The notes: generated from the letters alone by a model not told the origin. Counted from the first letter of the stretch, positions 11,634 to 44,965 are shown. The stretch: 55,779 nt of DNA from a virus (IMGVR_UViG_3300032397_000016:1-55779), one strand, 5' to 3'. Program-made: numbers and translations.

Positions 11634-12989
11634 ATGACCAAGGCAATGGCGAAGGTGATGGCGGGCCGAGCCCGTCTTGTGCTCGACCACCCATTCTTTG
11701 CGACTCTGGCGTTACATCTTGGTATCGAAGAGTCTCCTTCCTGCGGGACGGCTTGCGTTAACGGCGTTCGGATGCGGTTCGCTCCGGACTTCGTCAACAG
11801 CCTTCTCGCGACCGAACTCGTGACCGTGTGGTGCCATGAGGTTATGCACTGCGCTCTTGGCCACGCAAGCCGCCGCTTCGACCGTGACCACGAACTGTGG
11901 AACATCGCAGGCGACTATGCTATCAACATTATTCTGGTTGACGCCGGTCTGCAAATGCCTGCCGGGGCGTACGTCGATGATGCCTTTCGGGGAATGACAA
12001 CCGACGAGATATACCGAATCCTCGATGAACGCCGCCAAGAAGACGAGCAACAGCAACAGGAGTCGCCCGGAGCCGACGGTGCACAAGACGACTCCGGTGG
12101 CGGTTCGGACGACGGCAAGTCCGAGAAGGGCGGCAAGTCCGAGAAGTGTTGTGACGACAAGCCGCAGGGCCAAGACGTTGGCGGTGAAGACGCCGAAGAC
12201 GACGAGTCTACCGATGAAGACGGGTCCGGTGGCGGTGACGGCGACAACGGCGACGGCGACAACGGCGACGGCGACGGGCAGAAGGACAACGGTGAGACCG
12301 CCGAGACCAAAGACCCCGGCCGAATGGGCGCGGTCGAAGACGCTCCGGTAGGCGTCAACAAATCTGAACTTGACGACACCTGGCGAATCGTTCTTGCACA
12401 GGCCGCCGTACTTGCGGCGGGCAATATGCCCGGGTCTCTCAAGAAGGTTGTTGATAGCATCATAGCGCCGCGGCCGCCCTTCCTCGCGATGCTAGAGGAT
12501 TTCGTTGACAGGACCGCCCGCAACGATTACGATACCTCACGGCCGAGTCGGCGTTATTTGCCGTGCGGACTTATCATGCCGACGCTTCGGAGCGACGAAC
12601 TACCGGCGATTGTTATTGCCATTGATTCGTCGGGAAGCGTGTGGCGGCATGTCGATAAGTTCGCCGCGGCGGTCAGCGCCGTTCTTGAACGGTTTGAGAC
12701 AACTATCCACGTGATTTACGTGGATGCGGAAGTACGGGACTACAAGGAGGTGACTCGACATGACTTGCCGCTGGTTCTGGAGCCCAGTGGCGGCGGCGGC
12801 ACGAGGTTCGGTCCGGCCTTTGAGTGGGTGGAAAAGCAAGGATTGACTCCGGCGTGTCTGGTCTACTTGACAGACCTATGCGGCAGTATGCCCGAGCGCG
12901 AGCCCGACTATCCGGTGCTTTGGGTGACGACTGAGGAAAAGAGTAGAGCGCCGTTCGGGGAAACCGTCTACATGCCTTTGACCGATTGA
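11634..12989 (+). CDS. DUF2201-type protein: HExxH metallopeptidase + acidic linker + VWA-like domain
   Basis: HEVMH, WNIAGDYAIN, DSSGS, GGGT.F, YLTD. Confidence 0.85.
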   Translation: MTKAMAKVMAGRARLVLDHPFFATLALHLGIEESPSCGTACVNGVRMRFAPDFVNSLLATELVTVWCHEVMHCALGHASRRFDRDHELWNIAGDYAINIILVDAGLQMPAGAYVDDAFRGMTTDEIYRILDERRQEDEQQQQESPGADGAQDDSGGGSDDGKSEKGGKSEKCCDDKPQGQDVGGEDAEDDESTDEDGSGGGDGDNGDGDNGDGDGQKDNGETAETKDPGRMGAVEDAPVGVNKSELDDTWRIVLAQAAVLAAGNMPGSLKKVVDSIIAPRPPFLAMLEDFVDRTARNDYDTSRPSRRYLPCGLIMPTLRSDELPAIVIAIDSSGSVWRHVDKFAAAVSAVLERFETTIHVIYVDAEVRDYKEVTRHDLPLVLEPSGGGGTRFGPAFEWVEKQGLTPACLVYLTDLCGSMPEREPDYPVLWVTTEEKSRAPFGETVYMPLTD

Positions 12990-15523: not shown

Positions 15524-16633
15524 ATGAATCGCTCGATGCTTCTTTCGTGTCTACGTCGTGCCGAGTCAACCCTAGCGCCGACGAATCCAAATCGGATTCT
15601 CGGCGCTTTTTGTTTTGGCAAGAAAGGAGACGTGACTACATACGATGATGTGGTTGGAACCAAGGTACCGGTGGCCAAGTGGTTGGGTGAGAGCCCCGGC
15701 ATTATCGGTTGCGTCGAGGGGCCTTTGCTCATGGCCCTTCTGGCCGCGTCGTCGAGCAAGGACTTGACAATCACGCCCGCCGACGCCGAAATAGGGCTTG
15801 CGTTCGGTCGGTCTCGCGCCCGCCTGCCCATCATATCCGCCGCCGACTTCCCATTCAGATTTCCCAAGACTGAAGATGTGCCGATGTTCAAGATAAGTAC
15901 CGGTCTCTTGGACGCGTTTGCTCTCTGCGCGGAGACGGCGGGGAGCGACGACGCCCGGCCCGAACTGTCCGGTGTAACAATCAGCATATCGGTCGGTGAG
16001 GGGAGCAACGACCGTGTCGATGTGTACTCGTCGGACGACCTGACCACCACCTGGGCCAGCGCGGTTATCAAGGGACGTGCAGATAAGTACGGGTCTTTCG
16101 GTCTGCCGGTAGGATTTGTCAAGAGCCTCATCGGCCAGCCCAAGGATGACCAAGCGGCCACTCTCGGGTTCGGCAAGTCCGGCGCTGTCTTCGCGACGAA
16201 GAGGGGTTTGCGGTGCTTTGCGCGGTACACACACAAGAACTCGGACAAGACATTCGTTGAACTCTTTACGGGATATGCCGATAAGAGCAAAGGCGTCTCT
16301 GTGCCCGTTACCGAACGGCTTATCGGTTGCGTGGCTCGCGCCCAAATCCTTGTCGAGCACGGTGGCGGGCCGACTACGGAGTTCAACATATCAAGAGAGC
16401 ACAAACGGTTGACGCTCCGAACGGTTGGCCCCGCGGGGGAGGTGACCGACACGATGGCGCTCCCCGCGAGCGCGGACTTTGGCGAGTCTTTGGTGTCGCT
16501 GCGGACGGGGCCTGGACTTCTCGCGCGGGCACTCTTGACCGACAGGACGGCGCGCTTTAGGTCCGACGCTGTGGTGGTTCAGGCCAAACACATGGTGCAC
16601 TTGGTCAGCGTTGCCCAACATATCGAGAAATGA
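15524..16633 (+). CDS. dnaN: DNA polymerase sliding clamp (beta-subunit-like), divergent
   Basis: 369 aa; LPIISAADFP and ARPELSGV motifs; adjacent to PolA and DnaX. Confidence 0.7.
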   Translation: MNRSMLLSCLRRAESTLAPTNPNRILGAFCFGKKGDVTTYDDVVGTKVPVAKWLGESPGIIGCVEGPLLMALLAASSSKDLTITPADAEIGLAFGRSRARLPIISAADFPFRFPKTEDVPMFKISTGLLDAFALCAETAGSDDARPELSGVTISISVGEGSNDRVDVYSSDDLTTTWASAVIKGRADKYGSFGLPVGFVKSLIGQPKDDQAATLGFGKSGAVFATKRGLRCFARYTHKNSDKTFVELFTGYADKSKGVSVPVTERLIGCVARAQILVEHGGGPTTEFNISREHKRLTLRTVGPAGEVTDTMALPASADFGESLVSLRTGPGLLARALLTDRTARFRSDAVVVQAKHMVHLVSVAQHIEK

Positions 16634-19239
16634 CTATGGGATTTCAAACACGCTCCGAACAAGCATTTGGCCGAACGAGCCGCCGCCCCGCCGGTCCTCT
16701 GCATACGTCATTTCTTCGGTCTGCTGGTTGTGCGGCCTGTCCCCATCGCGGACGTGTTGGATTGAGGCATCCTCATATGGAGCCGACCGGGTCCGACGCG
16801 CCTTTGCTCTACGTCCTTGGCGAAGCGCCGGGCAAAGACGAGGACGCCGAAGGCTGTCAGTTCGTGGGGAAGACAGGCAGGATTCTACGCACATTGATAC
16901 CAAAGGGGTTCTCACGTGTTCGGTGGAATAACTGCGTGCGCTGCCGACCTCCCGGCAACAAGACCCCCGAAGCGAACGAGGTCGAGTCTTGCCGCGCATC
17001 GGCGGAGAGAGATATAGAGGTCACTAAGCCGACGATTGTGGTAGGTGTTGGTGGCGTGTCTCTCCGCTGGGCAACTGGCCGCGACGGCATAAAGATATGG
17101 CGCGGCCGCCGGACACCCATCAAGGTGGGTAATCATGTCTGTTGGTTCTACCCGATTCTCCATCCGTCATTCATAAGTAGAATGCGCAATGGGAGGGACG
17201 AGGAAGGAATCGGGCCGGAGTGGGAGCCTGTCTTTAAGAGGGATGTGGCGCGGGTGCTCGACGACGCCACCAGGCCCGACACGCCGAGACCAGAAGTGGA
17301 GGACTTGAGGTATCTCGACTCGGGCATAACCATTTACGACAAGACGACCAAGGCCAACTTGTCGGCCATATGTCGGTTTATGGATACAGCACGCGGCAAA
17401 TCCCCGCTGGTCCCCACGTCTATCGACTTAGAGACATCTACCCTCCGCCCGTATGCCCCCGGCGCAAAGGTCTTGTCCTGCGCCATCTCCATCGGTAGTA
17501 AGACCGTTGCCTTTCCTGTTGACCACCCCGAAGCGGCGTGGTCTCATGCACATAGAGCCCATCTGTTGGACAGTCTCTTTCGGCTCTTCCACAGTCCGAC
17601 CATCATGGTTGCACATAACGCCATATTTGAGTTGGAGTGGCTCGCGTCCCTGTTTGGGACATCGGTGGTGCGGGCGGCGTTGTGGGTATGTACCCAACAA
17701 CAGGCATACATAATTGACAATCGGAAGACAGGCAAGAAAACCCGCGGCGGCACGGGTCAATCATTGGACTTCCTGTGCCGCCTGTGGTTCGGCTTTGACC
17801 TGAAGGCGCAAAGCACGGTCAACCCTGCCCGTGCTGGAAGCGCACCGATAAAGAAGTTGCTTATGTACAACGGGAGGGACGCCAAATATGCACATAAGTT
17901 GGAGGGCGTCCAGCGCGATGCCATACAGGAAATGGGGTTGCTCGACGTCTTTAACGAGCACATGCGCCGCATCCCCAGCATCGTGCTTGCACAGGCCACC
18001 GGCGTACTGGTTGATACCGACGTGTCCAAGCGCATGGACCGGAAGTATCGACGTAGGATAGACAAGATAGGGACGGAGATTGCCCAACAGCCAGAGGTGC
18101 GCAAGTTCAGGAAGCGCACGGGGAAGGACTTTGAGCCGTCGTCACCAAACCAAGTGGCCACCCTTCTGCGCGACGTCGCTCATTGTCGCGAGGGCTTGAC
18201 GCGGTTGGGCGGCTACTCGACAGGCAAGGCGGTGCTCGACAGGATTAAGCGGCCGATTGCCCGGCTCATTCTTAGACATCGGGAAGTGACGAAACTTCAC
18301 GGTACGTACATAACTGTGTTCTTGCCCGGGAGCAAGGTTTTGTATCCCGACAGTCGGCTGCACACTCAGTACAACGCCAGTTTCACGGGGACAGGCCGCC
18401 TATCGAGTGAGGACCCCAATCTACAAAACATTCCATTTAGAACCGAAGAGGGTCGGCGGATTCGCAAAGCGTTCCCCGCCCCGCCAGGTCACGTCATGGT
18501 GGCGGCAGACTATGGGCAGATAGAGCCGCGGCTTATCGCGATGGCGTCGCGAGACAAGAACCTATTGGCATATATCAAAGACCGGCGTGACGTGCACGGT
18601 GTATGGTCCGAGCGCATCGCTCGTACATATAAACCGGTCTTTGAGAAGTTCTTGGCGGCGGCGGGCGGCGATAAAGAGAGAGCAATAGAGGACATGCGTA
18701 CCGATGTCAAATCGAACTGGGTGCTCGCAGGGTTCTACGGGTCCGAAGAAGATGCGATGATACGTCGGTATAATCTCCCGCGTCGTATCGGCGGCCGTTT
18801 ATATCGAGATTTCCGTGAGGAGTTTGAGGGCGTCTATCGGTGGCGGACTGGTGTGGTGAAACAGTACAACGAGATGGGATATATCGAGATGCTTACTGGG
18901 CGCAGGCGCTACGGTCCTCTAACTCTGAATATGATTGGCAACTCGGGGATTCAAGGCACGGCCAGCGACGTGCTCGTAAACGCCGGCGACCGTTTGTCGG
19001 AGCGCGCCCAAAAGAAGCGCGAGCCCTGGCTCCAGTTCGTAATGAACATACACGATGAGTTGGTATTCTACATACCCAAAGAACGCAAGACGCTGGAGCG
19101 GGCCATTGAGCGCGTGATTCGGACAATGCTCTTGGTGCCATTCTCTTGGGTGTGTGCTCCGTTCGTGGTGTCCGTCAAGACCGGCCCGACCTGGTATGAC
19201 TTGCGCAGTATCGGCAAGTTCTATACCGATGAACTCTAG
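16630..19239 (+). CDS. polA: Family A DNA polymerase with N-terminal family-4 uracil-DNA glycosylase domain
   Basis: UDG: CxxC, GEAPG.DED, FVG, CRPP.N, HPS. Exonuclease: DLET, YNGRD. Polymerase: TGRLSS.PNLQN, DYGQIE.R, HDE. Confidence 0.92.
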   Translation: MTMGFQTRSEQAFGRTSRRPAGPLHTSFLRSAGCAACPHRGRVGLRHPHMEPTGSDAPLLYVLGEAPGKDEDAEGCQFVGKTGRILRTLIPKGFSRVRWNNCVRCRPPGNKTPEANEVESCRASAERDIEVTKPTIVVGVGGVSLRWATGRDGIKIWRGRRTPIKVGNHVCWFYPILHPSFISRMRNGRDEEGIGPEWEPVFKRDVARVLDDATRPDTPRPEVEDLRYLDSGITIYDKTTKANLSAICRFMDTARGKSPLVPTSIDLETSTLRPYAPGAKVLSCAISIGSKTVAFPVDHPEAAWSHAHRAHLLDSLFRLFHSPTIMVAHNAIFELEWLASLFGTSVVRAALWVCTQQQAYIIDNRKTGKKTRGGTGQSLDFLCRLWFGFDLKAQSTVNPARAGSAPIKKLLMYNGRDAKYAHKLEGVQRDAIQEMGLLDVFNEHMRRIPSIVLAQATGVLVDTDVSKRMDRKYRRRIDKIGTEIAQQPEVRKFRKRTGKDFEPSSPNQVATLLRDVAHCREGLTRLGGYSTGKAVLDRIKRPIARLILRHREVTKLHGTYITVFLPGSKVLYPDSRLHTQYNASFTGTGRLSSEDPNLQNIPFRTEEGRRIRKAFPAPPGHVMVAADYGQIEPRLIAMASRDKNLLAYIKDRRDVHGVWSERIARTYKPVFEKFLAAAGGDKERAIEDMRTDVKSNWVLAGFYGSEEDAMIRRYNLPRRIGGRLYRDFREEFEGVYRWRTGVVKQYNEMGYIEMLTGRRRYGPLTLNMIGNSGIQGTASDVLVNAGDRLSERAQKKREPWLQFVMNIHDELVFYIPKERKTLERAIERVIRTMLLVPFSWVCAPFVVSVKTGPTWYDLRSIGKFYTDEL

Positions 19240-33026: not shown

Positions 33027-33398
33027 ATGCCTTTTCAGAAGGGACAAATCGCCAACCCTTACGGCCGCCCCAAGGGTACGTTCTGCGGTAGAATCCAAGC
33101 GTTGAATATACTGGATTCGATATGTGCAAACAAGAAAAACCAAGTGCTGCTCAAGGAAGCGCTGCAAGAGGAGTTTGAGGTAGACCCGTCTAAGTTCTTT
33201 AAGCAACTGATTATCCCGCTCTTGCCCAAACACCATGACATAACGAGTGCGGGTATGGCAATGTCTACCGTCACGCCCGAGCAAGTCCTTATAAAGATGG
33301 CTACGATGATGGCTCCGCCCCCGTCCAACAAACCAACCAACAAACCAACCAACAAACCAACCAACAAACCAACCAAGCGCGTGAGACTGAAGCCATGA
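33027..33398 (+). CDS. Terminase small subunit (putative)
   Basis: PFQKGQ..NP.GRPKG N-terminus; directly upstream of TerL. Confidence 0.7.
   Translation: MPFQKGQIANPYGRPKGTFCGRIQALNILDSICANKKNQVLLKEALQEEFEVDPSKFFKQLIIPLLPKHHDITSAGMAMSTVTPEQVLIKMATMMAPPPSNKPTNKPTNKPTNKPTKRVRLKP
33325..33376 (+). repeat. 12-bp tandem repeat CCAACAAACCAA x4 (NKPT)
   Basis: Read directly from the sequence. Confidence 0.9.
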
Positions 33399-34759
33399 TA
33401 AGACGATATATCAACCCGTCTTATCGTGTGATGGGTACCAGCCCCGCGCCTACCGTGGCGTGGAGCCAGCACAAGTACCATCCTGAACAATACCGCTTGG
33501 CAACATCTACCAAGAAGTTTGCATATGTAACCGCAGGCCGCGGCTCCGGCAAGACCGAGATAGCCAAGCGCCGGCTAGTTGCATATCTAGCCGTCAAGAA
33601 GCCGTGGGACGACCCCCGTTACTTCTATGCGGCTCCCACATATGCACAAGCCAAGCGCATTGCTTGGCATAGCATCCTACGGCTAATCCCCACTGAGTGG
33701 ATTGCAGCGAACGGGATAGACCGGTCGGAGTTGTGCATACGTACAATCTTTGGCTCCGAACTGTGGGTCGTGGGTCTTGACCGCCCCCAACGTATTGAGG
33801 GTGTACAATGGGACGGTGGAGTCATGGACGAATCTTGTGATATAAGACCCAAGACCTTCGACTTGTCTGTGCTCCCCGCTCTCTTGCACCGTAACGCTTG
33901 GTGCTGGCGCATTGGGGTTCCCAAGAGGTTTGGCATAGGTGCCGCCGAGTTCCGTAAGGCTTGGATGAAGGCGCGCAAGGGGGAATTGGAGGACTCAGAC
34001 GGGTACACATGGTCCGGTGAAGACATCTTGCCGCCCGACGCTCTTAAGATGATTAAGAGCATGGTAGACCAGAAGGACTACGACGAACAGATAAGAGCCA
34101 AGTTCGTATCAACCGCCGGAGGTATCTTCTACGCCTTCGACGAGGACCGTAACGTAAGGCCGTGTACATATGACCCGAGCAAGCCCATTCTAGTAGGCTC
34201 TGACTTCAACGTAGACCCGATGTGTTGGGTGATAGCGCAGCGTCACGGCCCCGGTGATGTTGACACGGACTGGCTGGAAGTCATGGACGAAATCTGGTTG
34301 CGGGACACGAACACCCCGGCTACCCTAGATGTGCTCTGGGATAGATACCATACTCATAAGAGTGGGTTCGAGTTCTACGGGGACGCGACGGGCAAGGCCC
34401 GCAAGTCCAGTGCAAGCATATCGGATTACATGCACATCCGTAACGACTGGCGATTCTTGGATGGAGGCCGGGTCGTGCGGTACCTTAAGAGCAACCCGCC
34501 CAAGGCTGACAGGTTCGCCGCGTGTAACGGGTTGATATGTAGTGCGGACGATACACGCCGGCTTTACATAGACACAAGATGCAAGCATCTAATCGACGAA
34601 ATGACTAGCCGGACATTCAAGCCCGGCACAAGCATCCCCGACGACAGTGACCTGGACGTGGGCCACATCACGGACGCATTGGGCTATCTCGTCTACAAGC
34701 AATTCCCAATCAGGTTGCGACTCACGAACCAGTACGAGGTTGCGATTACGGGCGCATAA
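33395..34759 (+). CDS. terL: Terminase large subunit
   Basis: AGRGSGKT, AAPT, MDE; nuclease GSDFN.DP, DAT, H..DALGY. Confidence 0.92.
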   Translation: MIRRYINPSYRVMGTSPAPTVAWSQHKYHPEQYRLATSTKKFAYVTAGRGSGKTEIAKRRLVAYLAVKKPWDDPRYFYAAPTYAQAKRIAWHSILRLIPTEWIAANGIDRSELCIRTIFGSELWVVGLDRPQRIEGVQWDGGVMDESCDIRPKTFDLSVLPALLHRNAWCWRIGVPKRFGIGAAEFRKAWMKARKGELEDSDGYTWSGEDILPPDALKMIKSMVDQKDYDEQIRAKFVSTAGGIFYAFDEDRNVRPCTYDPSKPILVGSDFNVDPMCWVIAQRHGPGDVDTDWLEVMDEIWLRDTNTPATLDVLWDRYHTHKSGFEFYGDATGKARKSSASISDYMHIRNDWRFLDGGRVVRYLKSNPPKADRFAACNGLICSADDTRRLYIDTRCKHLIDEMTSRTFKPGTSIPDDSDLDVGHITDALGYLVYKQFPIRLRLTNQYEVAITGA

Positions 34760-34771
34760 GGAGGAATAGAT

Positions 34772-37700
34772 ATGTCCCGGAAGTCAGGCGGCAACGGCAG
34801 AGTCAGGCTCGCCCTCTCCAGTGAGGCACGGCAGGCCATCATTGGTCCCAACTGGATAGGTGAACCTATCTTGAAGGATGCCAAGGAAACCAAGCGTCCC
34901 CCTGAGGCTGTCGATAAGACTGAAGAGGCTGGGGAAATGACAGCCCAACAGGTTGTCGGCTCTGTGGGCATTGCCCTTGGAGGGATGCTCCCTGTAGCCA
35001 TGCCCGTATCTGCAACCCAGTATCGCGTGATACGTAAGCACCCGACCGTTTCCCTCGTACGGCAATATCTAGCCGCGCCTATCCTTGCCGGGAGTTGGAG
35101 CGTCGATGCCGACGAGGACGCGCCGGACGAAGCCGTCGACCTCATACAGAAACATGTGCTCCCGTTGCGATACGACTATCTCATGGACTCCATCTTTGGG
35201 ACGGTCGACTGGGGTTGGCAAGCATTTGAGAAGATATATGAGTACAAGGACGGGAGCATCGTCATAACCAAACTGAAGCCGTTACTTCAAGACCTCACGA
35301 CGATTCTGGTGCTCAATGACACGGGCGCGTTCGCGGGGGTGCGGCAGGACTACCCGAGGCTGGTAACCCTTCTCACTGATAAGGTACTGCTGGTATCTTG
35401 CCGTGTCGAGGGGACCAATTGGTACGGCACCAGCCTGTTGGAGAATGTCCGGGGTGCGTACGACAATTGGAAAGATGTCAATGACTCGGCCAGTCGGTTT
35501 GACCGCAAGATAGCGGGCGCTCACTGGGTTGTCCACTACCCTCCCGGCAAGAGCGACTTCAGAGGTGTCCGTAACGTCGACAACGGTGAGATTGCAGACA
35601 TCGTAATCGCTGCATTGGAATCGAGTGGCAGCATCAGGGTTCCCAACTCACTGGCCAACTTCGTGGACGAGATGAACACCAAGGCCGGGGCGACACAATG
35701 GATTATCGACATAAAGGAATCCAGCCCCGGCCAGACCAGCGGCTTCGTTGACCGGCTCAAGTATTGCGATACCCAGATGGTTCGCTCATTCCACATGCCC
35801 GAGCGGGTCTTGCTTGAAACGGAGTTTGGCACCAAGGCCGACGCCGGCACGCACAAGGACTTGGCAGTTACAAATCTCGAACTGTTGGACGGGCAATTCA
35901 GTTCGGCAATCAACACCCAACTGGTTGACCAGTTGCTCGCGCTTAACTTCGGCCCCGAGATGATGGGCAAGGTACGCATCAAGCCCAGTCCCCTCGTAGA
36001 TGTTACCGCGCTCATGCTTGAAAGGATGTACACCCAGATTCTCGCCAACCCGCAGGGCTTCGTCGAGGAGGCCGGGAACGTTGACTGGGATGCAGTCAAG
36101 GACCGTCTTGATATACCGAAGTCTGCAACTACCACCCAGATGGGTGACCTCACGGACGAGTCAGAGGAGACGGAGGGCGGGGACGAAGACGGGTCCAATC
36201 AAGATAAGCCCATACCTGAGGGCATGGACACCAAAGAGATAAAGGAGGTGGCCGCGTCGCTCCGCCCTTTTGAGAGAGCCTTGCGGCTCGCAGGATTTGA
36301 CCCCAGCCAAGTCAGAGACGAGTCGGGTAGATGGACAGATATGGGCGGGGGTGTCCATACGGTTGCTATGGAGCCATCTGCACGGTTCCAGAAGTCCAAG
36401 TATAGTTGGGCCAAGCCCATTCTTGAACGTCACAAGAGCGAAATTCAGAAGCACGGTAGGAAAGTTTCTCAGCCGTCCGCGTCGGCCCTTATTGAATACC
36501 AGAACTTTGGATATGAACGTGTTAACGGTGCCTTACGGCACGGTAGTTTCGGAGGGGCTCGGGACAACATGCGGGAAATCAGCGCGCTAGATAACGCAAT
36601 GATTACTCCAGCACCGGAGTCGATGGTTCTTTACCGCGGTCTTCGCTCTACTGTTCTCCGGGGTCTGCGTGTTGGAAAGGTTTATACTGACAAAGGATTT
36701 ATGTCCACATCTTGGGACCCCGATGTTGCCCTCCGGGGCGCGTCCGCCGCGGCGTACGAGTTGGATGAAGAAATGGTTTTAGATGTGCACGTACCTAAGG
36801 GATTCCCGTTGGCCTTTCCGTCCGCAATGGGTATCGGCGGCTGGCGTAGAGAGCGGGAGGTTATTCTGCCGCGCGGTACAAGATATATAGTTCGCTCAAT
36901 AGACCGGGGCTATCATGGTGGCCCAGAGGTCGAGGTATTCCCGCCCAAGGGAGGGTTTAAGAAGACGAAAGTGGTGGCCGCAAGTCTTACAGAAGACGCA
37001 GACCCCGGAGAACAGTTTGGCGACGAGTTGACGGATTGTGATAAGTCGTGGGCCGAGGTCCTTGAGTCGGCAACAGGCGACGATGTGTTGTCCCTTGCAG
37101 GATTCGACCCGAGCCAAGCCAGGGACGAAGATGGCAAGTGGACCGCTCTTGGTGGTGGGGGTATTGAGACCCATCTAAAGCAAGGCGGCAAGTTACCAAA
37201 GCATATCACCCAGCGCATACCTCCGGCATGGACTGATGTAGAAATCAATCTCAACCCCAACGCCAGGAACTACGTGCGCGCCCGCGACGCGAAAGGGCGC
37301 CGGCAACTGATTCAGAACCCCGCATTTGTACAGGCCCAGAGTGATTCCAAGTTTACACGTGTACGCTTGTTGGACTTTGCAAAGATTCACGCCGAGACCG
37401 TCAAGGACGCCAAGACCGATGAGGCCGCCGCGGCGTTGCTCTTGATACAAGAGACAGGCATCAGGCCAGGAGGAGAGAAGGACACAGGGGCAGACGTACA
37501 ATCGTACGGGGCTACTACACTACTCGCGGAGCACGTCAAAAAGGGCGGCGCTTTGTTGACATTCATTTCTGGTAAGTTACACCATGACCCCGACAAGCCG
37601 CCTAAGACAATAGACATGCCAATATCAGACCCCGTTGTTCGGGTCATGCTCAAAGAACGCGCCGCACGCGCGGGCAAGGGCGGGCGTCTGTTTAACACTG

Positions 37701-38539
37701 ACGATACCAAGTTGCGAGCGTACACGGATAAATATGGTGCTCATCCCAAAGACTTCAGGACCGCAGTAGGAACGGCCACAGCCGTGGCGGCAATTAAGGA
37801 ACTAGGCCCGCCGCCCAAGCCAACGGGTGATGCAAAGAAGGACATGAAGGCTTACAAGAAACACGTGGCGCTGGTGGCCAATCGCGTGGCCGCAAAACTT
37901 GGCAATACGCCAACCATTGCGCTACAGTCATATATCGACCCAAAGGTATTTCTCCCGTGGCGAAAGCCACTAGTCGCGAGTTTGGCGGGCTATGACCCCA
38001 GCCAACCGCGTGACGGGAGCGGTAGGTGGGACGAGACCGGGGCGGGCAGCGCTGTCAGTGGTGAAGACAAGTTGACGTCTTCGGTCAAGCGGTTTAAGAC
38101 GGGCGACGAGTGGATGCACGCGATGCCGCTGCGCGCTTCGGGTCTAATATATAACTGGGTAGACGACACATCACGAATAAAGGATGACGAGAGCGCGACA
38201 AAGAAGTTCGAGAGTATTATAGCACGCGCCCCTCACCCGAGAGCCACCCTATATCACGGGGCCGCTTTTGCTCATTGGCATACAAGGTTTGCCAAAATAC
38301 GGAAGGGTTCCGTAATTACCGTTGAACGTCCTTCATCATGGACGTCGATGCGAAGTGTAGCACAATCTTTTGGCAGAGGAGGGGTCGTTTTCAAGGTCAA
38401 AACCAACAAGGCGGCGGATATACGCGTTTTTAACCAAGAAGAGGGTGAGTTCATTGTTCCCAGAGGAACAAGGTTCAAAGTTGTAAGCATAAGGAAGGGT
38501 AGATATGAGATGTTCGTCAAACTAAAGGAGGCGTCGTGA
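34772..38539 (+). CDS. Portal polyprotein: DUF935-like portal + ADP-ribosyltransferase + DNA topoisomerase IB + second ART-like domain
   Basis: Portal position after TerL with GWQAFEK.Y, YG.SLL, LVDQLLALNFG. ART1: LYRG/MSTS/EREV.LPRG. TopIB: IPPAW, TGIRPG, YGATTL, KDFRT, LGNT, SYIDP. ART2: LYHG/SSWTS/EGEFIVPRG. Confidence 0.88.
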   Translation: MSRKSGGNGRVRLALSSEARQAIIGPNWIGEPILKDAKETKRPPEAVDKTEEAGEMTAQQVVGSVGIALGGMLPVAMPVSATQYRVIRKHPTVSLVRQYLAAPILAGSWSVDADEDAPDEAVDLIQKHVLPLRYDYLMDSIFGTVDWGWQAFEKIYEYKDGSIVITKLKPLLQDLTTILVLNDTGAFAGVRQDYPRLVTLLTDKVLLVSCRVEGTNWYGTSLLENVRGAYDNWKDVNDSASRFDRKIAGAHWVVHYPPGKSDFRGVRNVDNGEIADIVIAALESSGSIRVPNSLANFVDEMNTKAGATQWIIDIKESSPGQTSGFVDRLKYCDTQMVRSFHMPERVLLETEFGTKADAGTHKDLAVTNLELLDGQFSSAINTQLVDQLLALNFGPEMMGKVRIKPSPLVDVTALMLERMYTQILANPQGFVEEAGNVDWDAVKDRLDIPKSATTTQMGDLTDESEETEGGDEDGSNQDKPIPEGMDTKEIKEVAASLRPFERALRLAGFDPSQVRDESGRWTDMGGGVHTVAMEPSARFQKSKYSWAKPILERHKSEIQKHGRKVSQPSASALIEYQNFGYERVNGALRHGSFGGARDNMREISALDNAMITPAPESMVLYRGLRSTVLRGLRVGKVYTDKGFMSTSWDPDVALRGASAAAYELDEEMVLDVHVPKGFPLAFPSAMGIGGWRREREVILPRGTRYIVRSIDRGYHGGPEVEVFPPKGGFKKTKVVAASLTEDADPGEQFGDELTDCDKSWAEVLESATGDDVLSLAGFDPSQARDEDGKWTALGGGGIETHLKQGGKLPKHITQRIPPAWTDVEINLNPNARNYVRARDAKGRRQLIQNPAFVQAQSDSKFTRVRLLDFAKIHAETVKDAKTDEAAAALLLIQETGIRPGGEKDTGADVQSYGATTLLAEHVKKGGALLTFISGKLHHDPDKPPKTIDMPISDPVVRVMLKERAARAGKGGRLFNTDDTKLRAYTDKYGAHPKDFRTAVGTATAVAAIKELGPPPKPTGDAKKDMKAYKKHVALVANRVAAKLGNTPTIALQSYIDPKVFLPWRKPLVASLAGYDPSQPRDGSGRWDETGAGSAVSGEDKLTSSVKRFKTGDEWMHAMPLRASGLIYNWVDDTSRIKDDESATKKFESIIARAPHPRATLYHGAAFAHWHTRFAKIRKGSVITVERPSSWTSMRSVAQSFGRGGVVFKVKTNKAADIRVFNQEEGEFIVPRGTRFKVVSIRKGRYEMFVKLKEAS

Positions 38540-40860
38540 TGAGTAAAGACCGATTCACGGACTCGGACGACCTTGAAGTCGAGCCGGGTACAGATGTTGA
38601 CATTGAAGACGGAGGTGTCGACGATGAGCCGACGGACTTTTTTGAGTCCGATGACGTCGAGCCGTTGGCCCTCGCACACGACGACGACGACGACGACAAC
38701 GACCCGGACGACGAGTTGCTTCCGGAGACTGACCCGGAAGTTATTGCAACACTTGGATTCGACCCTCTCGACGAGTTGGACCTGCTAGAAGAGGGTGAAG
38801 TGTTGCAGTTAGCGGGATATGACCCCAGCCAGCCGCGCGACGAGGGTGGTAAGTGGACGGACGGCGGAGGTGGCGGCGCGCCGTCTACTGATGAAGAAGG
38901 GTTAGGCGTGCCCCCGAAGAACGCGCCGGAACAATGCAAAGATTTGTTCAGGGCACGTTGGCGCGCATATCAAAATCTACGTAAGGCCAAGACTGCCGAG
39001 GACAAGGTCAAGAACCAAGCGGCTTTCGACAAGGCTACAGCCGACCTTGAGCAAGCCAAGAAGGAGCACCCTGATTGGTTCGTGAAGTCGGAAGAAGACA
39101 AAGCGCGGTGGCGCAAGGCCAAGGAAGACAAGCCGGGACGTATCAAGAGTGGTAGAGGCGACACTCCGGACTACATGAGGATGGGTGCGATTGAATTGGA
39201 AGAAGCATTTAAGAAACGGTTTTCCGCTAAGCAGTTCGACGCCAGTGGCCCGGCCGCACTTGTGGTTGAGGGGGACCCGACTGGTGGTAGCCGACACGTC
39301 CAAACGGCTAAATATATAGCAGTGGAAGCCGAAAGAGTCGACGCTGAGTTCCCGGGCGTTGATTTGCGTATCAATTCTCCGTTTTCGACCGTCATAGAGC
39401 CAGTATCACGTGTGGACGGTCAATATCTGGGAACATACTCCGCCCTGGGGAGTAGGATTCGCATTGCCGGCAAAGGCGGAGACATATCCGCAAAAGAAGA
39501 ACCGTTTACAATAGGTGCTTTCCACGCCACTCACGGGGATTCCAGCACGTGGCGGCACGAACTCGGCCACCATATCCAGTCTACCGTTGTGCAAGACAAG
39601 GCTCTTGACGGGAGATGGAGTGATATGTACGTAAAGCACTCCAGCACGTGGTGGGAAAAGAAGGTGTCCCGTTACTCCGCTACAAATCACCGCGAGGGGT
39701 TCGCGGAAGCGTTCGCGGTGTATACGTCGCCGCTCTATGACCACGCCCATCCCGCGCTTCCGAGAGAGATACATAATTTCATGAAACAGGTTACCGGACA
39801 CATAGAAGAGGGTGAAGTGTTGCAGTTAGCGGGATATGACCCCAGCCAGCCGCGCGACGATAGCGGCAGATGGGATGAGACAGGGGCAGGCGGTGGGCGA
39901 GTGCTTGCGCTGCCTGTACCTCCTAAGAACGCGCCGGAGGCGTGCAAGGATTTATTCCGTGCGCGTTGGAAAGCATATAGTAATCTACGCAAGGCCAAGA
40001 CTCCGGAGGAGAAGGCCGAGAGACAAAAGGTTTTCGACAAGGCCACGGCGGACCTTGACCAAGCCAAGAAGGACCATCCGGACTGGTTTGCCAAGTCAGA
40101 AGAGGACAAGAATAGATGGCGCAAGACGAAAGAGCCAAAGGAACCGAAGGAACCGCCGCGCGTTGAAGAGGGTGCCCAGTCGGATTTTCACGCGCTTCAT
40201 AGCGGGCAAGCGTTGTCGGAAGAGTATGGAAGACGCTTCAAGACTACCGGGGGTGACAGTAGCAAACTGTTTATGGATGAGGGTGACAGTGATTCGTTCA
40301 TAACAGCCCGGCACGTGGCTGCAAATATGGAACGTATGAATAGTGAATGTCCTGGTCTTGGGCTGTCGTGGCGCGGACCTGTGTCCGTTTCTATTACAAA
40401 AGGGGAAACCGTCCACATCCCCAAAACATGGTGGGCGAGTGAATCTTCTGATGCGTGGGGTACATATGCGGCCGCGATGGGTGGAACTATAAGGATGGGT
40501 GCCCGCGCTGATTTTACTGAGCAAGAATTGCCAATAACGGTTGGAAGGTTCCACGCCGCCAACGGCGACGCAAGCGTATTTAGACATGAGTTGGGGCATC
40601 ATGTTGAGTTCGGTCTACCAAAAGAGGTTAATGAAGAGTGGCGTGTTATGTACCACACTAGGGACGCGCCCCAAGGCGGTGAATCACCGGCGCGCACCGC
40701 TTGGTGGACCAAAAAGGTTTCGAGTTACGCGGCTACTAATTATCAAGAGGGGTTCGCGGAAGCGTTCGCCGCTTACACGTCACCGTTGTACAACCATGAG
40801 AAACCCCAACTCCCGAAAGAAGTGCATGACTTTATGAAGAAGATAACCGGGCACAAGTAG
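38536..40860 (+). CDS. Head-associated protein with acidic N-terminus and two tandem zincin (lethal-factor-like) metallopeptidase modules
   Basis: Two copies of leader + helical PPKNAPE domain + RHELGHH...S.Y.ATN..EGFAEAF. Confidence 0.8.
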   Translation: MMSKDRFTDSDDLEVEPGTDVDIEDGGVDDEPTDFFESDDVEPLALAHDDDDDDNDPDDELLPETDPEVIATLGFDPLDELDLLEEGEVLQLAGYDPSQPRDEGGKWTDGGGGGAPSTDEEGLGVPPKNAPEQCKDLFRARWRAYQNLRKAKTAEDKVKNQAAFDKATADLEQAKKEHPDWFVKSEEDKARWRKAKEDKPGRIKSGRGDTPDYMRMGAIELEEAFKKRFSAKQFDASGPAALVVEGDPTGGSRHVQTAKYIAVEAERVDAEFPGVDLRINSPFSTVIEPVSRVDGQYLGTYSALGSRIRIAGKGGDISAKEEPFTIGAFHATHGDSSTWRHELGHHIQSTVVQDKALDGRWSDMYVKHSSTWWEKKVSRYSATNHREGFAEAFAVYTSPLYDHAHPALPREIHNFMKQVTGHIEEGEVLQLAGYDPSQPRDDSGRWDETGAGGGRVLALPVPPKNAPEACKDLFRARWKAYSNLRKAKTPEEKAERQKVFDKATADLDQAKKDHPDWFAKSEEDKNRWRKTKEPKEPKEPPRVEEGAQSDFHALHSGQALSEEYGRRFKTTGGDSSKLFMDEGDSDSFITARHVAANMERMNSECPGLGLSWRGPVSVSITKGETVHIPKTWWASESSDAWGTYAAAMGGTIRMGARADFTEQELPITVGRFHAANGDASVFRHELGHHVEFGLPKEVNEEWRVMYHTRDAPQGGESPARTAWWTKKVSSYAATNYQEGFAEAFAAYTSPLYNHEKPQLPKEVHDFMKKITGHK
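38786..38843 (+). repeat. 58-bp exact direct repeat, copy 1 (encodes the cargo leader)
   Basis: Identical to 39803-39860. Confidence 0.9.
39803..39860 (+). repeat. 58-bp exact direct repeat, copy 2
   Basis: Identical to 38786-38843. Confidence 0.9.
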
Positions 40861-40874: not shown

Positions 40875-41129
40875 ATGCTTGGCGAACCGAAGTGCTACAC
40901 CAGAAATTGTACGCATTTTCAAGGGGTCAAGAGCGACGCGACGGACGACGAGCCGGAAAAGAACGAGCGCAACGTCTGCGATGCGTTCCCCGACGGCATC
41001 CCCAACGAAATCGCTTACGGGGACAACCCGCACACCGGGCCGGTTGAAGGCGACAACGGTATTACATATGAAGTGGCGCGTCATGCGGGTGCGTCCGATG
41101 TGCCGGAAGACGAACCTGGGGAAGACTAG
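40875..41129 (+). CDS. Small Cys/His protein (C.AFPDGIP..I..G...H..P..GDNGI), candidate immunity protein
   Basis: RBS AGGAG; directly after the peptidase gene; motif I recall occurring beside head-associated toxin domains. Confidence 0.65.
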   Translation: MLGEPKCYTRNCTHFQGVKSDATDDEPEKNERNVCDAFPDGIPNEIAYGDNPHTGPVEGDNGITYEVARHAGASDVPEDEPGED

Positions 41130-42034
41130 TGCCAAAGGTAACCAACAAACAGAGACACCAGGCGCGCTTGCACCTACGGGACACGCGCGCATATGAACTC
41201 CTGGCCATACGCCTGGCCGCGCGCGTGGGCCTGCGCGTGCAACGCCGGGCACTTCAGGGCTACAAGCGCCAAGAGCAAGACTGGGCCAAGCACGCGCTGG
41301 ATGTGTTCACAGAGGTCAAGCCGGTGCTTGTAGACGCGGTGATGTTGGCATATTTCAGGGGGTTGATTCGCGGTAATCTGTCCGGCGGAAAGACCCTCGC
41401 GCTTGCGCGGGGGTTCAGCGCCCTTGACCGCGCAGTGGACGCCGCCGCCGCCCGGCTTAAGGTGAGTAATCGAGTTGTGTCTGCGCTTGCTAGACTTGCA
41501 GACGCACAAGCAATCAAGGTGTTGGATGGCGTGCGTGGAGCCGTCGAGAAAAAACTAGAGGCCGCAGTTGTAGAGATAACCCGGCAAAACCTCCATGTCG
41601 ATGCGGGGGTTAACCTTCTGCGCAAAGCCTTCTTTGCATCCGGCATAAAGCCCACCAACTCATTTCAACTAGAGGCGATATTTAGAACCCAGACACAACT
41701 GGCGTACCAGGCCGGACGTTGGCAGGCAAACCAGGAGCCGGAGATTCAGGAAATCTTATGGGGATATAAGTATGTGACAGTTGGCGACGACCGTGTAAGA
41801 CCAAGCCACCAACTGCTGGAGGGTGTGACGCTTCCCAAAGACCATCCCTTCTGGTTGACAAACTGGCCACCTAATGGCTGGGCGTGCCGCTGCCAAGCCA
41901 TTGAGATATTCGACGAGGTCGATGTGGTCGAGCCGCCAGATGTGACGGAGATAGACGGGGAATGGGTTGTGCCTGGTGCCGACGAGGGATTTGGGTACAA
42001 CGCAGGTGAGTTGTTCCGGGCGTTTCTAGTCTAG
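41129..42034 (+). CDS. Minor head morphogenesis protein, Mu gpF / SPP1 gp7 family
   Basis: IFRT, Y..GR, YVTVGDDRVRPSH..L.G, FW...PPNGWACRC, D.GF.YN.G. Confidence 0.92.
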   Translation: MPKVTNKQRHQARLHLRDTRAYELLAIRLAARVGLRVQRRALQGYKRQEQDWAKHALDVFTEVKPVLVDAVMLAYFRGLIRGNLSGGKTLALARGFSALDRAVDAAAARLKVSNRVVSALARLADAQAIKVLDGVRGAVEKKLEAAVVEITRQNLHVDAGVNLLRKAFFASGIKPTNSFQLEAIFRTQTQLAYQAGRWQANQEPEIQEILWGYKYVTVGDDRVRPSHQLLEGVTLPKDHPFWLTNWPPNGWACRCQAIEIFDEVDVVEPPDVTEIDGEWVVPGADEGFGYNAGELFRAFLV

Positions 42035-42313: not shown

Positions 42314-42382
42314 GCTTACTGAAGAGTGGGACCGTTGCGGAGAGATGCTCATGCGGCCTTGGCGACAAGCAGAGGTATAGTG

Positions 42383-43462
42383 ATGCCACACATAAGCAAA
42401 CACGAGTGGCCCGAGAGCGCCGCCTTGTGCTTTGTCTACAAGGGCAATGCTGCGGTCGCTCTTTCCGCCGAGACGGTTGAGGAAGGCCATCCTGTCCGAT
42501 TGTTCCGCAAGGGACTTATCAAGATTGGCGACTGGTTTAAGAGCGCGGACAATCTCTCATTCACAGTTACCAATGAGTCCCTCCAGCATTGGGCAAGGAC
42601 GTTCAAGGAAATGGTGGCCAACGCTGTCGCCGTTCCCATCATGCTTGGCCACACGCTGGAGGCTGACAAGAGCAGGGGCAAACTTGTAGATGTGTTCGTG
42701 GATGGGGACGAACTGGTTGGCGTACTGAAGATGATAGGGCGGGACGGCATTGACCTGGCCCACAGGACGGATGTCAGTATCTACTCCCCGCCCTCGTACG
42801 TCGACGGCAAGAAGAACACTTACCGCTGGCCCATCACCCATGTTGCTGTGTGTGTGGACCCGGTAATCACAGGGCTCTCCGAGTGGAGCGCGGTGGCGGC
42901 ATCGCTATCGCCGGCACTCATGTTGATGGATGCACAGGCCAAAAGGAGCGACGAAATGGACTGGTCCAAAATCAAGGCGGCGTTGGGTATCACTGAGGAC
43001 ATGGCAGACAAGAATGCGGAGGCGCTCATTCTGTCCCATGTCGAAAAGTTGGCCGTGGACAAAAAGAAGGTCGACGACGACATGGCCGCGCTGAAACTCT
43101 CGCACGCCGGGCGCACGGTCGACCCGCTGTTGGTCACCCTCGGCGCTGAGAACAGAACGGCACGTCTCAATGCGTTGGTGGCCGGTGCCAAGATTACCAA
43201 GGCCGTCCGCGACGGCCTGGAGGGCATCTTCATTGGTAAGGACGGTGCCGCCCTTTCGCTGACTCTCTCACGTGCACCTGTTGGCGATTCGGACCCCGAC
43301 CGGTTCAACGCGCTCTGTCTGGAACTGGCCAAGAATGACGTGGTGGTGCTCAAGGAACAAAGCGGAGCCCAGTTGCTCTCGCTGGCCGGGGGCGGCGGTG
43401 CACCCGGCAAGGCCGACCTGGTGAAAGACGCCGAGGCAAGAGCCGCGGCCGCAAAAGCCTAG
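42383..43462 (+). CDS. Prohead protease/scaffold (Mu gpI-like), with probable internal scaffold start at 42956
   Basis: PIMLGH, DVSI, HVA....P.I.GL; internal AAGGAG-N7-ATG (MDWSKIK). Confidence 0.75.
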   Translation: MPHISKHEWPESAALCFVYKGNAAVALSAETVEEGHPVRLFRKGLIKIGDWFKSADNLSFTVTNESLQHWARTFKEMVANAVAVPIMLGHTLEADKSRGKLVDVFVDGDELVGVLKMIGRDGIDLAHRTDVSIYSPPSYVDGKKNTYRWPITHVAVCVDPVITGLSEWSAVAASLSPALMLMDAQAKRSDEMDWSKIKAALGITEDMADKNAEALILSHVEKLAVDKKKVDDDMAALKLSHAGRTVDPLLVTLGAENRTARLNALVAGAKITKAVRDGLEGIFIGKDGAALSLTLSRAPVGDSDPDRFNALCLELAKNDVVVLKEQSGAQLLSLAGGGGAPGKADLVKDAEARAAAAKA

Positions 43463-43883: not shown

Positions 43884-43963
43884 ACCAACGGCGGACTAAG
43901 CGGTTAGTCCACTGCCGTATATTGATGTGAAGAAACGGTAGCCGGGTGACAAGGAGAGAAGCC

Positions 43964-44965
43964 ATGCCTGTGACGCTAACGGACGTTTTCAATTCGGACA
44001 CCTTCAAGGTAACGACCTTGACGGACTCGTTGACCAAACTACCCTTCAAGCCGTCGAGAATCGGCGCGATGGGCCTCTTTCAGGCGAGTGGCATCCCCAC
44101 GACCACACTCGTCGTTGAGGAGAGGGATGGACAACTGGTACTTATCCCGACGCAACCTCGCGGCGCGCCGTCCAACAAACTGGCCAAGACCAAGCGCAGG
44201 GCGCGGTCGTTCCAAGTCGTGCACCTGCCGCTGGAGGACACCGTGCTCGCGGACGACGTCCTGAACGTCCGCGCGTTCGGCTCAGACCAGCCAATGGCCG
44301 GGGTCAACCAGGTGGTCAACGACCGACTTATGGTGATGCGTCAAAGCCACGAAGTCACGCTGGAATACCAGCGGCTTGGCGCGGTGAAGGGCGTTATCGT
44401 GGACGCCGACGGAGCCACCGAGATATACGACCTCTTCGCTGAGTTCGACATCGCGGCTCCCACCATCGACTTCCTGCTCGACGTCGACACAACCAGCGTT
44501 CGGCAGCGAATCATTGCCCTCAAGCGGCTCATGGAGGCCGCGATGGGTGCGTCGATGTATGACCATATCCACGCCTTTTGCGGCGCGGATTGGTTCGACG
44601 CACTCATTGACCATCCTTCGGTCTATGACGCATATGAGCGCTTCCGTGACGGTGAGGCGCTCCGCAACGACCCGCGGAAGGGCTTTGAGTTCGCGGGCAT
44701 CACATTCGAGGAATACCCCGGCACGGTCTCCGGCACCAAGTTCGTGGCCGACAACAAGGCGCACTTCTTCCCCGTCGGCGTGCCCGGTCTGTTCGTCACG
44801 AAGTTCGGCCCGGCCGACTTTATGGAGGCCGTCGGAACGGTGGGACAAGCGCTCTATGCTAAGAGCATGTTGCTCCCACTTGACAAGGGTATCCTTCTGC
44901 ATACCCAGAGCAATCCGATTTCGCTCTGCACGCGGCCCGAAGTGCTCTACACCGCCACTGAGTAA
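43964..44965 (+). CDS. Major capsid protein (lambda gpE family)
   Basis: D.FN...F....LT, MGLF, RGAP, T.EY.R.GA.KG, F.FAGI.FEEY, QSNP...CTRP. Confidence 0.92.
   Translation: MPVTLTDVFNSDTFKVTTLTDSLTKLPFKPSRIGAMGLFQASGIPTTTLVVEERDGQLVLIPTQPRGAPSNKLAKTKRRARSFQVVHLPLEDTVLADDVLNVRAFGSDQPMAGVNQVVNDRLMVMRQSHEVTLEYQRLGAVKGVIVDADGATEIYDLFAEFDIAAPTIDFLLDVDTTSVRQRIIALKRLMEAAMGASMYDHIHAFCGADWFDALIDHPSVYDAYERFRDGEALRNDPRKGFEFAGITFEEYPGTVSGTKFVADNKAHFFPVGVPGLFVTKFGPADFMEAVGTVGQALYAKSMLLPLDKGILLHTQSNPISLCTRPEVLYTATE

Follow-up and report, generated by a model that had tools for sequence, protein, structure and literature searches.

A type IB topoisomerase fused to the portal protein of an uncultured phage, and its candidate acidic partner

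Organization of the portal fusion locus

The IMG/VR virus record IMGVR_UViG_3300032397_000016, a stretch of 55,779 bases that is classed as linear (CheckV completeness ~56%) and is referred to in its full length as the window, carries nearly all of its genes on the + strand, among them a portal gene, P0002, whose product extends through two ADP-ribosyltransferase (ART) modules and a type IB topoisomerase (TopIB). The modules of this single open reading frame (ORF) stand in the order portal, tag, ART1, tag, TopIB, tag, ART2, each tag being a copy of one short repeated motif, and the overlapping next gene, P0003, encodes an acidic module followed by tag, zincin module, tag and zincin module. The features of the two genes are listed by position.

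34772-38539, + strand: whole fusion ORF P0002, 1255 amino acids, one open frame without a stop; four Pfam families, all above their cut-offs
34970-36151, + strand: portal domain, residues ~67-460, from Pfam Portal_Mu and from an AlphaFold2 (AF2) model with VIA-align; predicted to be complete through the crown helices
36281-36334, + strand: tag 1, LRLAGFDPSQVRDESGRW, motif start 36296; Gly run after it, lies before ART1
36437-36904, + strand: ART1; Pfam ADPrib_exo_Tox at residues 556-711, E-value 3.4e-16; PHROG 'Alt-like RNA polymerase ADP-ribosyltransferase', E-value 1.7e-10
37088-37141, + strand: tag 2, LSLAGFDPSQARDEDGKW, motif start 37103; GGGG after it, lies before TopIB
37145-37975, + strand: TopIB module, residues 792-1068, N-terminal beta-sheet domain and catalytic domain, from Pfam, phmmer, AF2, Foldseek and alignment; catalytic codons R898 at 37463, K935 at 37574, R996 at 37757, N1045 at 37904 and Y1054 at 37931
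Motifs within TopIB, first half: IPPAWTDV 37217-37240, ARDAKGRRQ 37280-37306, TGIRPG 37454-37471, SYGATTL 37502-37522
Motifs within TopIB, second half: FISGK 37562-37576, PKDFRT 37745-37762, LGNT 37898-37909, SYIDP 37928-37942
37976-38029, + strand: tag 3, ASLAGYDPSQPRDGSGRW, motif start 37991; lies before ART2
38057-38536, + strand: ART2, second ADP-ribosyltransferase-like module; Pfam ART at residues 1170-1253, E-value 2.6e-9
38536-40860, + strand: next gene P0003, 774 amino acids; its GTG start overlaps the portal stop by 4 nucleotides
38536-38805, + strand: candidate acidic partner module, net charge -36 over 90 residues, isoelectric point 4.1; aligned with 40 modules that lie downstream of TopIB elsewhere
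~38707-38793, + strand: conserved half of the acidic module, PDDELLPETDPEVIATLGFDP
38803-38856, + strand: tag 4, LQLAGYDPSQPRDEGGKW, motif start 38818; lies before zincin module 1
39820-39873, + strand: tag 5, LQLAGYDPSQPRDDSGRW, motif start 39835; lies before zincin module 2

Identity of the topoisomerase domain

The initial annotation, made from the DNA of the window, had placed an intact-looking TopIB with the Asn-type (bacterial) catalytic set inside the portal fusion, and profile, residues and fold model agree with that placement. All eight motifs that it quoted were found where it had put them, in one + strand frame within ORF 34772-38539, and the codon at 37931 that it had read as the catalytic Tyr is TAT. 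On the distinction between TopIB and recombinases that it had drawn, the Pfam family Topoisom_I (PF01028) was found, with the profile spanning residues 871-1049, and no integrase family was matched in Pfam at E ≤ 0.1. Topoisom_I scored 39 bits against a cut-off of 23.7 (E-value 7.4e-10) when the domain was searched alone and 34.1 bits within the whole protein, while the bacterial N-terminal profile PF21338 gave a partial match over profile positions 26-41 only, at 16.6 bits against a cut-off of 27; relatives in the same clade score 27-42 bits with this second profile. A phmmer search of all PDB sequences matched query positions 23-269 to the TopIB of Deinococcus radiodurans (2f4q, E-value 3e-10), with the RPG Arg, KDFRT Arg, LGNT Asn and SYI Tyr in register and the Lys displaced by a shift of two residues; the match positions were counted in the phmmer alignment against the 2f4q residues that we take to be R137, K174, R239, N280 and Y289.

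The AF2 model of the domain, built on 37 relatives, has a mean predicted local distance difference test (pLDDT) value of 91.7 and a predicted template modelling (pTM) score of 0.87, and consists of three N-terminal strands followed by the catalytic domain. Its best Foldseek matches were 2f4q, first at 1.5e-10, and 2h7f, 3m4a, 3igc and 2h7g, up to 7e-10, with the variola TopIB-DNA complexes 2h7f and 3igc at a TMq of 0.69-0.70 and human Top1 ranking after these. A tyrosine recombinase or protelomerase, which shares the catalytic fold, was tried as an alternative identity and rejected: XerA (E-value 0.02), P2 integrase (0.08), TelA (0.13) and TelK (0.27) were matched by the model with E-values at least 8 orders of magnitude above the 1e-10 reached by TopIB structures, which as a group extend from 1e-10 to 1e-5, Pfam assigns Topoisom_I, and both the beta-sheet domain at the N-terminus and the PPAW motif are traits of TopIB, so that the chance of a recombinase or protelomerase is negligible. 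Sequence and predicted fold together thus confirm the domain as a complete bacterial/poxvirus-type TopIB, and its residues point to an apparently working DNA-relaxing enzyme. The domain is strongly basic, with a charge of +18 and an isoelectric point of 10.0.

A phage clade on many carriers

An exhaustive phmmer search over 1.84 billion cluster representatives returned 2799 relatives of the TopIB module at E ≤ 1e-3, 1605 at E ≤ 1e-10 and 535 at E ≤ 1e-30, the best 150 of which are 42-52% identical to it, have lengths of 313-1853 amino acids and carry the TopIB mostly at the C-terminus. By sequence similarity, the domain belongs to a large clade from uncultured phages; within IMG/VR, a relative is encoded by 293 of the 315 stretches retrieved by pattern. 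Numbered within the domain, the catalytic Arg, Lys, Arg and Tyr (R107, K144, R205 and Y263) together with K202 are present in 268/268 distinct family sequences, and the catalytic Asn (N254) in 267/268, with His in the remaining one. This near-invariance fits an enzyme under selection for catalysis. A tblastn search of 50,697 phage records with the TopIB domain (E ≤ 1e-5) matched one record only, Bacteroides phage BS162P1, whose top1E is 28% identical and is a free gene of 254 amino acids amid hypothetical genes and is uninformative; megablast of the fusion gene gave no match in the same 50,697 records. A scan of bacterial species-representative genomes with strict patterns yielded two loci, L223 and L224, in metagenome-assembled genomes of Castellaniella sp. 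and Candidimonas sp., which may point to Alcaligenaceae as hosts of the clade or to prophages in them.

The initial annotation had pointed to portal/MuF-TopIB fusions as worth surveying, and the clade proved to be fused to four portal families, to MuF and to DUF2213. Among 70 long homologues (690-2197 amino acids, precomputed Pfam), a portal family was present in 39 (Portal_Mu 9, Phage_portal_3 24, Phage_portal_2 4, Phage_portal 2), MuF in 6 and DUF2213 in 4, and NUDIX, ART, 2H, PARP, GNAT and InPase domains were present too. A further 66 homologues of at least 420 amino acids included 16 with a portal (Phage_portal_3 14, Phage_portal 1, Phage_portal_2 1) and 3 with MuF, along with ADPrib_exo_Tox (6), NUDIX, InPase and Acb1 (3 each), and ART-PolyVal, 2H, His_Phos_1 and Helicase_C (1 each). 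On a FastTree phylogeny of 68 TopIB domains, the carrier labels required 19 changes, against a minimum of 5 and a shuffled mean of 28.5, and the 10 Portal_Mu rows required 8 changes against a shuffled mean of 9.5; the rows nearest to the window's TopIB ride on MuF, Phage_portal_3 and Portal_Mu, with low support. As far as sequences can tell, TopIB is a domain that moves between carriers and is an add-on in P0002.

The portal part of the fusion leads to the same picture. Portal_Mu (PF06074) matched residues 84-413 at an E-value of 1.7e-14 (54.4 bits against a cut-off of 23.9), and PHROGs also assign a portal. A sequence search for a solved portal matching P0002 found none and a fold model was used instead: the AF2 model of residues 1-470, built on 46 relatives, has a pLDDT of 81.2 and a pTM of 0.73, and all 50 of the 50 VIA-align rows listed for it are solved portals (Z 23.4 to 15.6), with G20c/P74-26 portals at the top (Z 23) and the phage Mu portal 9knu at Z 19.2. 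Since the aligned ranges of the model extend to residues 451-463, the portal appears to be complete through its last helices with the cargo starting beyond them, and the first ~460 residues are, by this model, an ordinary, complete Mu-type portal. The crown helices of solved portals face the interior of the head. Among the 140 portal relatives of P0002 at E ≤ 1e-10 (258-823 amino acids), the best 120 of 140 are mostly 400-540 amino acids long and unfused, which argues that the cargo is an add-on to this portal; only 7 longer relatives were found, bearing InPase, ART or zeta-toxin-like domains, and TopIB occurs in 0/7.

Repeated tags at the module boundaries

A motif scan and an alignment of the copies revealed five tags of the form LAG[FY]DPSQxRDxxG[RK]W in the window, three in the portal fusion and two in P0003, each at a module boundary and each followed by a Gly-rich run. 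P0003 is an internal tandem duplication of two ~340-residue units (tag, helical stretch, HELGH zincin; 38818-39834 and 39835-40857), its zincin assignment coming from Pfam ATLF at residues 331-398 (E-value 3.1e-8) and from HELGH at residues 341 and 684. At the DNA level, the five tags have a mean column identity of 75% and share GAC CCC AGC CA, a likeness not clearly beyond codon preference except for the tandem duplication behind tags 4 and 5, which are identical over their first 40 nucleotides. Related tags, commonly FxESxHPRDxxGKF, were found in 92/255 family members at 19-82 residues upstream of the PPAW motif, and also precede the TopIB of free ORFs of 300-400 amino acids; the family total was 135, where shuffled sequences predict 0.25.

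None of the window's five tags matched a Pfam family even at E ≤ 10. DUF7211 was considered as an identity for them and rejected: it matched two partner-linked proteins, yet the peptide at locus L103 is a different motif (GIKGMKWG). Members lacking the HPR/QPR tag (the N-terminal parts of P0078, P0100, P0122 and P0076, as well as P0113 and P0180) often bear other motifs ahead of TopIB, namely CGxGxGGFxPGNxC and GNFGHxGRPGxVGG, and because of these at least three tag types seem to exist. The tags may serve for cleavage, for targeting to the capsid, or for both.

ADP-ribosyltransferase modules flanking the topoisomerase

ART1 has the motifs R622, S645-T-S and E694-x-E696. In ART2, His replaces the Arg expected in the first motif (LYHG against LYRG in ART1; residues 1161-1163, 38252-38260) and E1224-G-E1226 is retained (38441-38449), so that this module may be an ART of other specificity or a weakened one. 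ADP-ribosyltransferases use NAD+, and because NAD+ is not expected inside a capsid, both would act in the cell rather than in the head.

An acidic module linked to the topoisomerase

Comparison of the P0003 product with 80 TopIB loci located its conserved part in the first ~90 residues, which recur at the start of the ORF after TopIB. The module, of ~55 residues, has the consensus PDxHFGxxxxxxxDWRxxxxxDxDPDDExLxETPxDVIAxLGFDP, with LGFDP invariant in 41 sequences. In Pfam, 0/41 members were matched, and in PHROGs only two single marginal matches were obtained, at E-values of ~0.008-0.009. By a strict pattern, the module directly follows TopIB in 46/80 loci, either as the next, overlapping ORF or as an in-frame fusion. 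Conversely, a DNA pattern for DV[IV]xxLGFDP retrieved 80 loci irrespective of TopIB, 67 of which contain the module according to a hidden Markov model, with TopIB directly upstream in 64/67, although model and pattern were both built from TopIB-adjacent modules and would miss divergent, unlinked ones. The gap between TopIB and module ranges from -24 to +83 nucleotides in 61/64 and is 395, 828 and 1101 nucleotides in the other 3, and the 13 loci with the pattern and no module lack TopIB. Two of the three loci in which the module has no TopIB upstream have only 13 and 100 nucleotides of upstream DNA. The sole clear exception to the linkage is L131:1847-3262, where an acidic module is preceded by 1846 nucleotides of upstream DNA and by no TopIB.

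The acidic module frequently continues into other domains. Among 93 distinct modules with a closed end, the tail has ≤30 residues in 55, 31-100 in 3, 101-300 in 12 and >300 in 23, and it thus exceeds 100 residues in 35/93. A scan of 33 longer tails recognized ADPrib_exo_Tox in 7, NUDIX in 5, DUF2213 in 4 and DUF6098 in 2, nothing in 13, and in one tail each an XkdF-type protease with 2H, pentapeptide repeats, an ATLF-type zincin like that of the window (L103), a ferritin-like domain, GNAT and Tpt1/PARP. Given such tails, the layout of the window, in which the acidic module is followed by other domains, is a recurrent one. At L043:10780-12363, the module is followed by a long pentapeptide-repeat domain (Pfam E-value 3.1e-41). 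The pentapeptide-repeat fold includes DNA mimics that protect gyrase, on which basis this domain would be a second topology-related cargo behind a TopIB partner.

With the best of three controls at 0.00, a complex model of the TopIB domain with the acidic module had a median score of 0.81 over three runs, a mark that was reached by 116/157 solved complexes and 2/215 mismatched pairs in a calibration that is only rough here, the alignments having been supplied by us. The three runs share at least 40% of their contacts. On TopIB, the predicted interface comprises residues 67-70, 107-108, 142-143, 202, 205, 234-246, 252-258, 260-262 and 266-273, which cover R107, K202, R205 and N254 and adjoin K144 and Y263; on the partner, it comprises residues 58-86, its conserved half. 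The charges of the two are complementary (+18 and -36). The model supports binding of the acidic module over the catalytic cleft of TopIB.

A proposed route of delivery, and its alternatives

A possible explanation for this arrangement is that TopIB is loaded into the head, ejected with the DNA and kept silent by its acidic partner until then. The 12 portal subunits would each bring one copy of the ART1-TopIB-ART2 cargo into the procapsid, and the ~55-residue acidic module would span the catalytic cleft, keeping the basic TopIB away from DNA both in the cell that makes the phage and in the filled head, while also docking the two zincin modules of P0003 onto the portal-borne enzyme. The modules would then be severed at the repeated tags, most plausibly by the P0003 zincins, and the freed enzyme would exit with the DNA, whereupon a dilution that we estimate at ~10,000-fold, together with competing DNA, would release the partner in the new cell and TopIB could relax supercoils without ATP before any phage gene is expressed. 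Taken as a whole, this route seems to us somewhat likelier right than wrong. As to the substrate, the phage's own incoming genome, for which poxviruses offer the precedent, has close to an even chance by analogy; host DNA is a serious though less probable candidate, and some other substrate is rather unlikely. It is conceivable, but doubtful, that the pair does more, with a DNA-mimicking peptide that plugs a virion-borne TopIB serving also as a capsid-loading handle for unrelated proteins. Equally tentative is the extension in which the riders on that handle would be two zincin proteases here and ARTs, NUDIX enzymes or a prohead protease elsewhere, with dilution at ejection switching TopIB on without a regulator.

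The initial annotation had proposed several roles for the domain, of which relief of twist during packaging is the least favoured here. An enzyme that stayed on the portal to relieve DNA twist in packaging or ejection would be tethered to the ring through which all of the DNA passes, and the carrier is indeed a portal in 55/136 of the fusions examined. The packaging role is disfavoured because members of the same clade are also borne by MuF, by DUF2213 and by bare, free tagged ORFs (294-420 amino acids), and because the polypeptide is shared with NAD+-using ARTs, which would act in the cell and not in the head, and is accompanied by a dedicated acidic partner predicted to block the active site. 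The modules are, moreover, parted by Gly-rich tags, and the closest portals function without cargo. A TopIB that remains in place for this purpose is therefore quite improbable.

The same delivery is shared by a reading of TopIB as a weapon, which would relax or nick the host chromosome or defeat a topology-dependent defence, with the acidic module as the immunity protein of the producing cell. The fellow cargo of the clade includes host-directed or counter-defence domains (ART, Acb1, NUDIX, 2H), the partner is predicted to lie on the catalytic cleft, and MuF polymorphic toxins, as given in the available text of Jamet et al. 2017 (PMC5576092), are likewise laid out as an effector with a small cognate gene. 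Set against this are the self-resealing chemistry of TopIB, the ≤~12 copies that would face a whole chromosome and the host gyrase, and the lack of a target-site bias in the window, as judged by CCCTT. We know of no defence system that TopIB would defeat, and overall the weapon reading is unlikely. The statement in the initial annotation that the cargo system delivers more than toxins is upheld in part: it agrees with the idea of polyvalent proteins in the available text of PMC5512222, while the combination of an enzyme with a small cognate gene resembles a toxin-immunity pair, a likeness from which the phage seems to treat TopIB as needing restraint.

The chemistry of the enzyme also suggests a role at the genome ends, either covalently attached to them or acting at them, in protection or in circularization after entry. 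TopIB attaches to DNA through a 3'-phosphotyrosyl bond, from which the strand can be passed on to a 5'-OH, vaccinia TopIB joins ends in vitro on suicide substrates, and the 55,779-base record is linear with no terminal repeats found. At ~56% completeness, however, the ends of the record are not the genome ends, nothing in the data points to ends, and the predicted blocking role of the partner speaks against a pre-formed DNA adduct, leaving this role very improbable.

Besides the limits on the linkage counts and on the complex score given above, several points weigh against the delivery of a silenced TopIB as the preferred reading. An insert of 8 residues immediately follows the catalytic Lys in the window's TopIB: the stretch F140-D157 has 18 residues here, against 10 in 238, 12 in 28 and 19 in 1 of the 268 family sequences, so that a loop this long occurs in only 2/268, and it could impair activity. 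The Lys of the family falls opposite K942 in a 38-sequence alignment and opposite K935, the FISGK Lys, in the 268-sequence alignment, and both residues share one hairpin loop with a pLDDT of ~68. Taken to its extreme, this unusual insert would mark a domain that has lost catalysis and serves the portal crown in DNA binding or structure. The chance of this is very slim given that all catalytic residues are present, with (near-)invariance in the family, and that the model has high confidence over the active site (pLDDT 91.7). The acidic module of the window is itself atypical, with IED for HFG and DFF for DWR and with its second half kept, and it is parted from TopIB by ART2, as in the rare loci with wide gaps. 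The pLDDT of the partner is 48-49 across the complex runs, which leaves its own fold uncertain, and the score of the complex bears on binding and says nothing on inhibition. CCCTT, the target pentamer of the poxvirus topoisomerase, is neither avoided nor enriched in the window (97 observed against 116.9 expected, rank 75-76/1024). The zincins are connected with the tags by adjacency only, and neither Pfam nor PHROG revealed a prohead protease anywhere in the window. A folded enzyme of 31 kDa would also need to unfold in order to traverse the tail, and for the portal-borne TopIB we infer each of loading, silencing, cleavage, ejection and target.

Neighbouring genes and other observations in the window

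The head module runs, by Pfam and PHROG, in the order large terminase, portal fusion, zincin gene, MuF, decoration protein and major capsid protein, and is preceded by a replication block with DnaB, an SNF2 helicase, PolA fused to a uracil-DNA-glycosylase domain, gp32, RecA, SbcCD and Dam. The head genes beside the fusion are the following.

33395-34759, + strand: large terminase subunit (PHROG phrog_2 'terminase large subunit', E-value 2.4e-24); the portal gene is next downstream
41129-42034, + strand: MuF-type minor head protein, 301 amino acids, cargo-free; Pfam Phage_Mu_F, E-value 1.7e-16; PHROG phrog_220, E-value 1.7e-25
43946-44965, + strand: major capsid protein, end of the head module; Pfam Phage_cap_E, E-value 2e-98; PHROG phrog_29, E-value 1e-59

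Between MuF and the decoration protein, an ORF of 378 residues (42326-43462) that has no Pfam or PHROG match occupies the place expected of a scaffold or prohead protease. Within the replication block, 16630-19239 encodes a family A DNA polymerase of 869 residues with an N-terminal domain of the uracil-DNA-glycosylase superfamily, and 10614-12989 holds an AAA ATPase gene followed by a DUF2201 metallopeptidase/VWA-like gene (E-value 1.5e-48). Across the window, the pentamer AGCAG/CTGCT occurs 24 times where 66.9 are expected, a strong under-representation (z -5.2, the lowest of 1024) that could reflect avoidance of a restriction site.

Comparison with known systems

A virion-borne topoisomerase is a classic of poxviruses and is not known for phages in the literature searched, in which no paper was found on a phage TopIB borne by a portal or capsid. 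In hundreds of lineages of uncultured phages, a catalytically conserved TopIB appears on portals and minor head proteins, which suggests that DNA topology in the first seconds of infection matters to phages. The acidic peptide may be a short natural inhibitor of TopIB. If it both docks and silences, it would be, to our knowledge and with no search aimed at the question having been made, the first natural protein inhibitor of a type IB topoisomerase, and would offer a new programmable route for loading cargo into phage heads; the cassette of tag, enzyme and partner is modular and could load chosen proteins into them.

The closest published framework is that of the polyvalent proteins of Iyer et al. 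2017 (PMC5512222), described in its main text as portal and MuF proteins fused to PBECR, 2H and InPase domains, with a zincin proposed as the processor, and as proteins proposed to be delivered with the DNA. As in P0002, several unrelated enzymes there share one head-module polypeptide: ART, TopIB and ART on the portal provide at least two unrelated effector domains among the virion genes, and two HELGH zincin modules are present, although in the neighbouring gene and not in the same chain. In the main text, supplementary files excluded, the word 'topoisomerase' occurs once, in a reference title, and a term search found neither the acidic partner nor the tags. The MuF polymorphic toxins of Jamet et al. 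2017 (PMC5576092), according to the text available, combine a variable C-terminal effector with a small immunity gene downstream, and the locus likewise has a head-protein carrier, a C-terminal effector and a small downstream gene. In contrast to those toxins, the carrier here is a portal, the MuF protein at 41129-42034 is cargo-free, and the partner is an acidic peptide that is often fused to cargo; the word 'topoisomerase' is absent from the available text of that paper. Iyer et al. 2021 (PMC7824862) describe, in the part available, a topoisomerase I that is specific to phages, belongs to the tyrosine-recombinase superfamily and occurs in some jumbo phages, placed there under replication and DNA topology with no portal or capsid link, and none of the phages named in it was among the tblastn matches of the TopIB in the 50,697 phage records (E ≤ 1e-5). 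The preprint 10.1101/361121 concerns, in its available text, a plasmid topoisomerase IA.

Phage T4 Alt is a precedent for an enzyme that is carried in the head and injected, and ART1 matches the Alt-like PHROG (E-value 1.7e-10). Alt is made on its own and directed by a short sequence at its N-terminus, whereas the ARTs and TopIB of the window are part of the portal chain. The introduction of PMC5512222 presents Alt as a head-packaged, injected ADP-ribosyltransferase.

The two remaining comparisons concern the enzyme itself. The TopIB of Deinococcus radiodurans (2f4q/3m4a) is the best sequence match among solved structures (E-value 3e-10) and has the Asn-type catalytic set in common with the window's domain. 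It differs in being a free cellular enzyme, is only 24% identical to the window's domain, against 42-52% for the phage clade, and lacks the insert that follows the catalytic Lys in the window, where the N-terminal Pfam match is partial and below its cut-off. The TopIB of poxviruses (variola/vaccinia; 2h7f, 3igc, 1a41) has the same two-domain clamp fold as the model, at a TMq of 0.69-0.70 and a root mean square deviation of ~4 Å over ~269 columns, and the same Arg-Lys-Arg-x-Tyr chemistry. Poxviruses carry their enzyme in the virion, as we infer for the phage enzyme. The phage enzyme is 20-23% identical to that of poxviruses and has Asn rather than His at the fourth catalytic position, and it stands in a portal polyprotein instead of being free, with a cognate acidic partner and a bacterial host.

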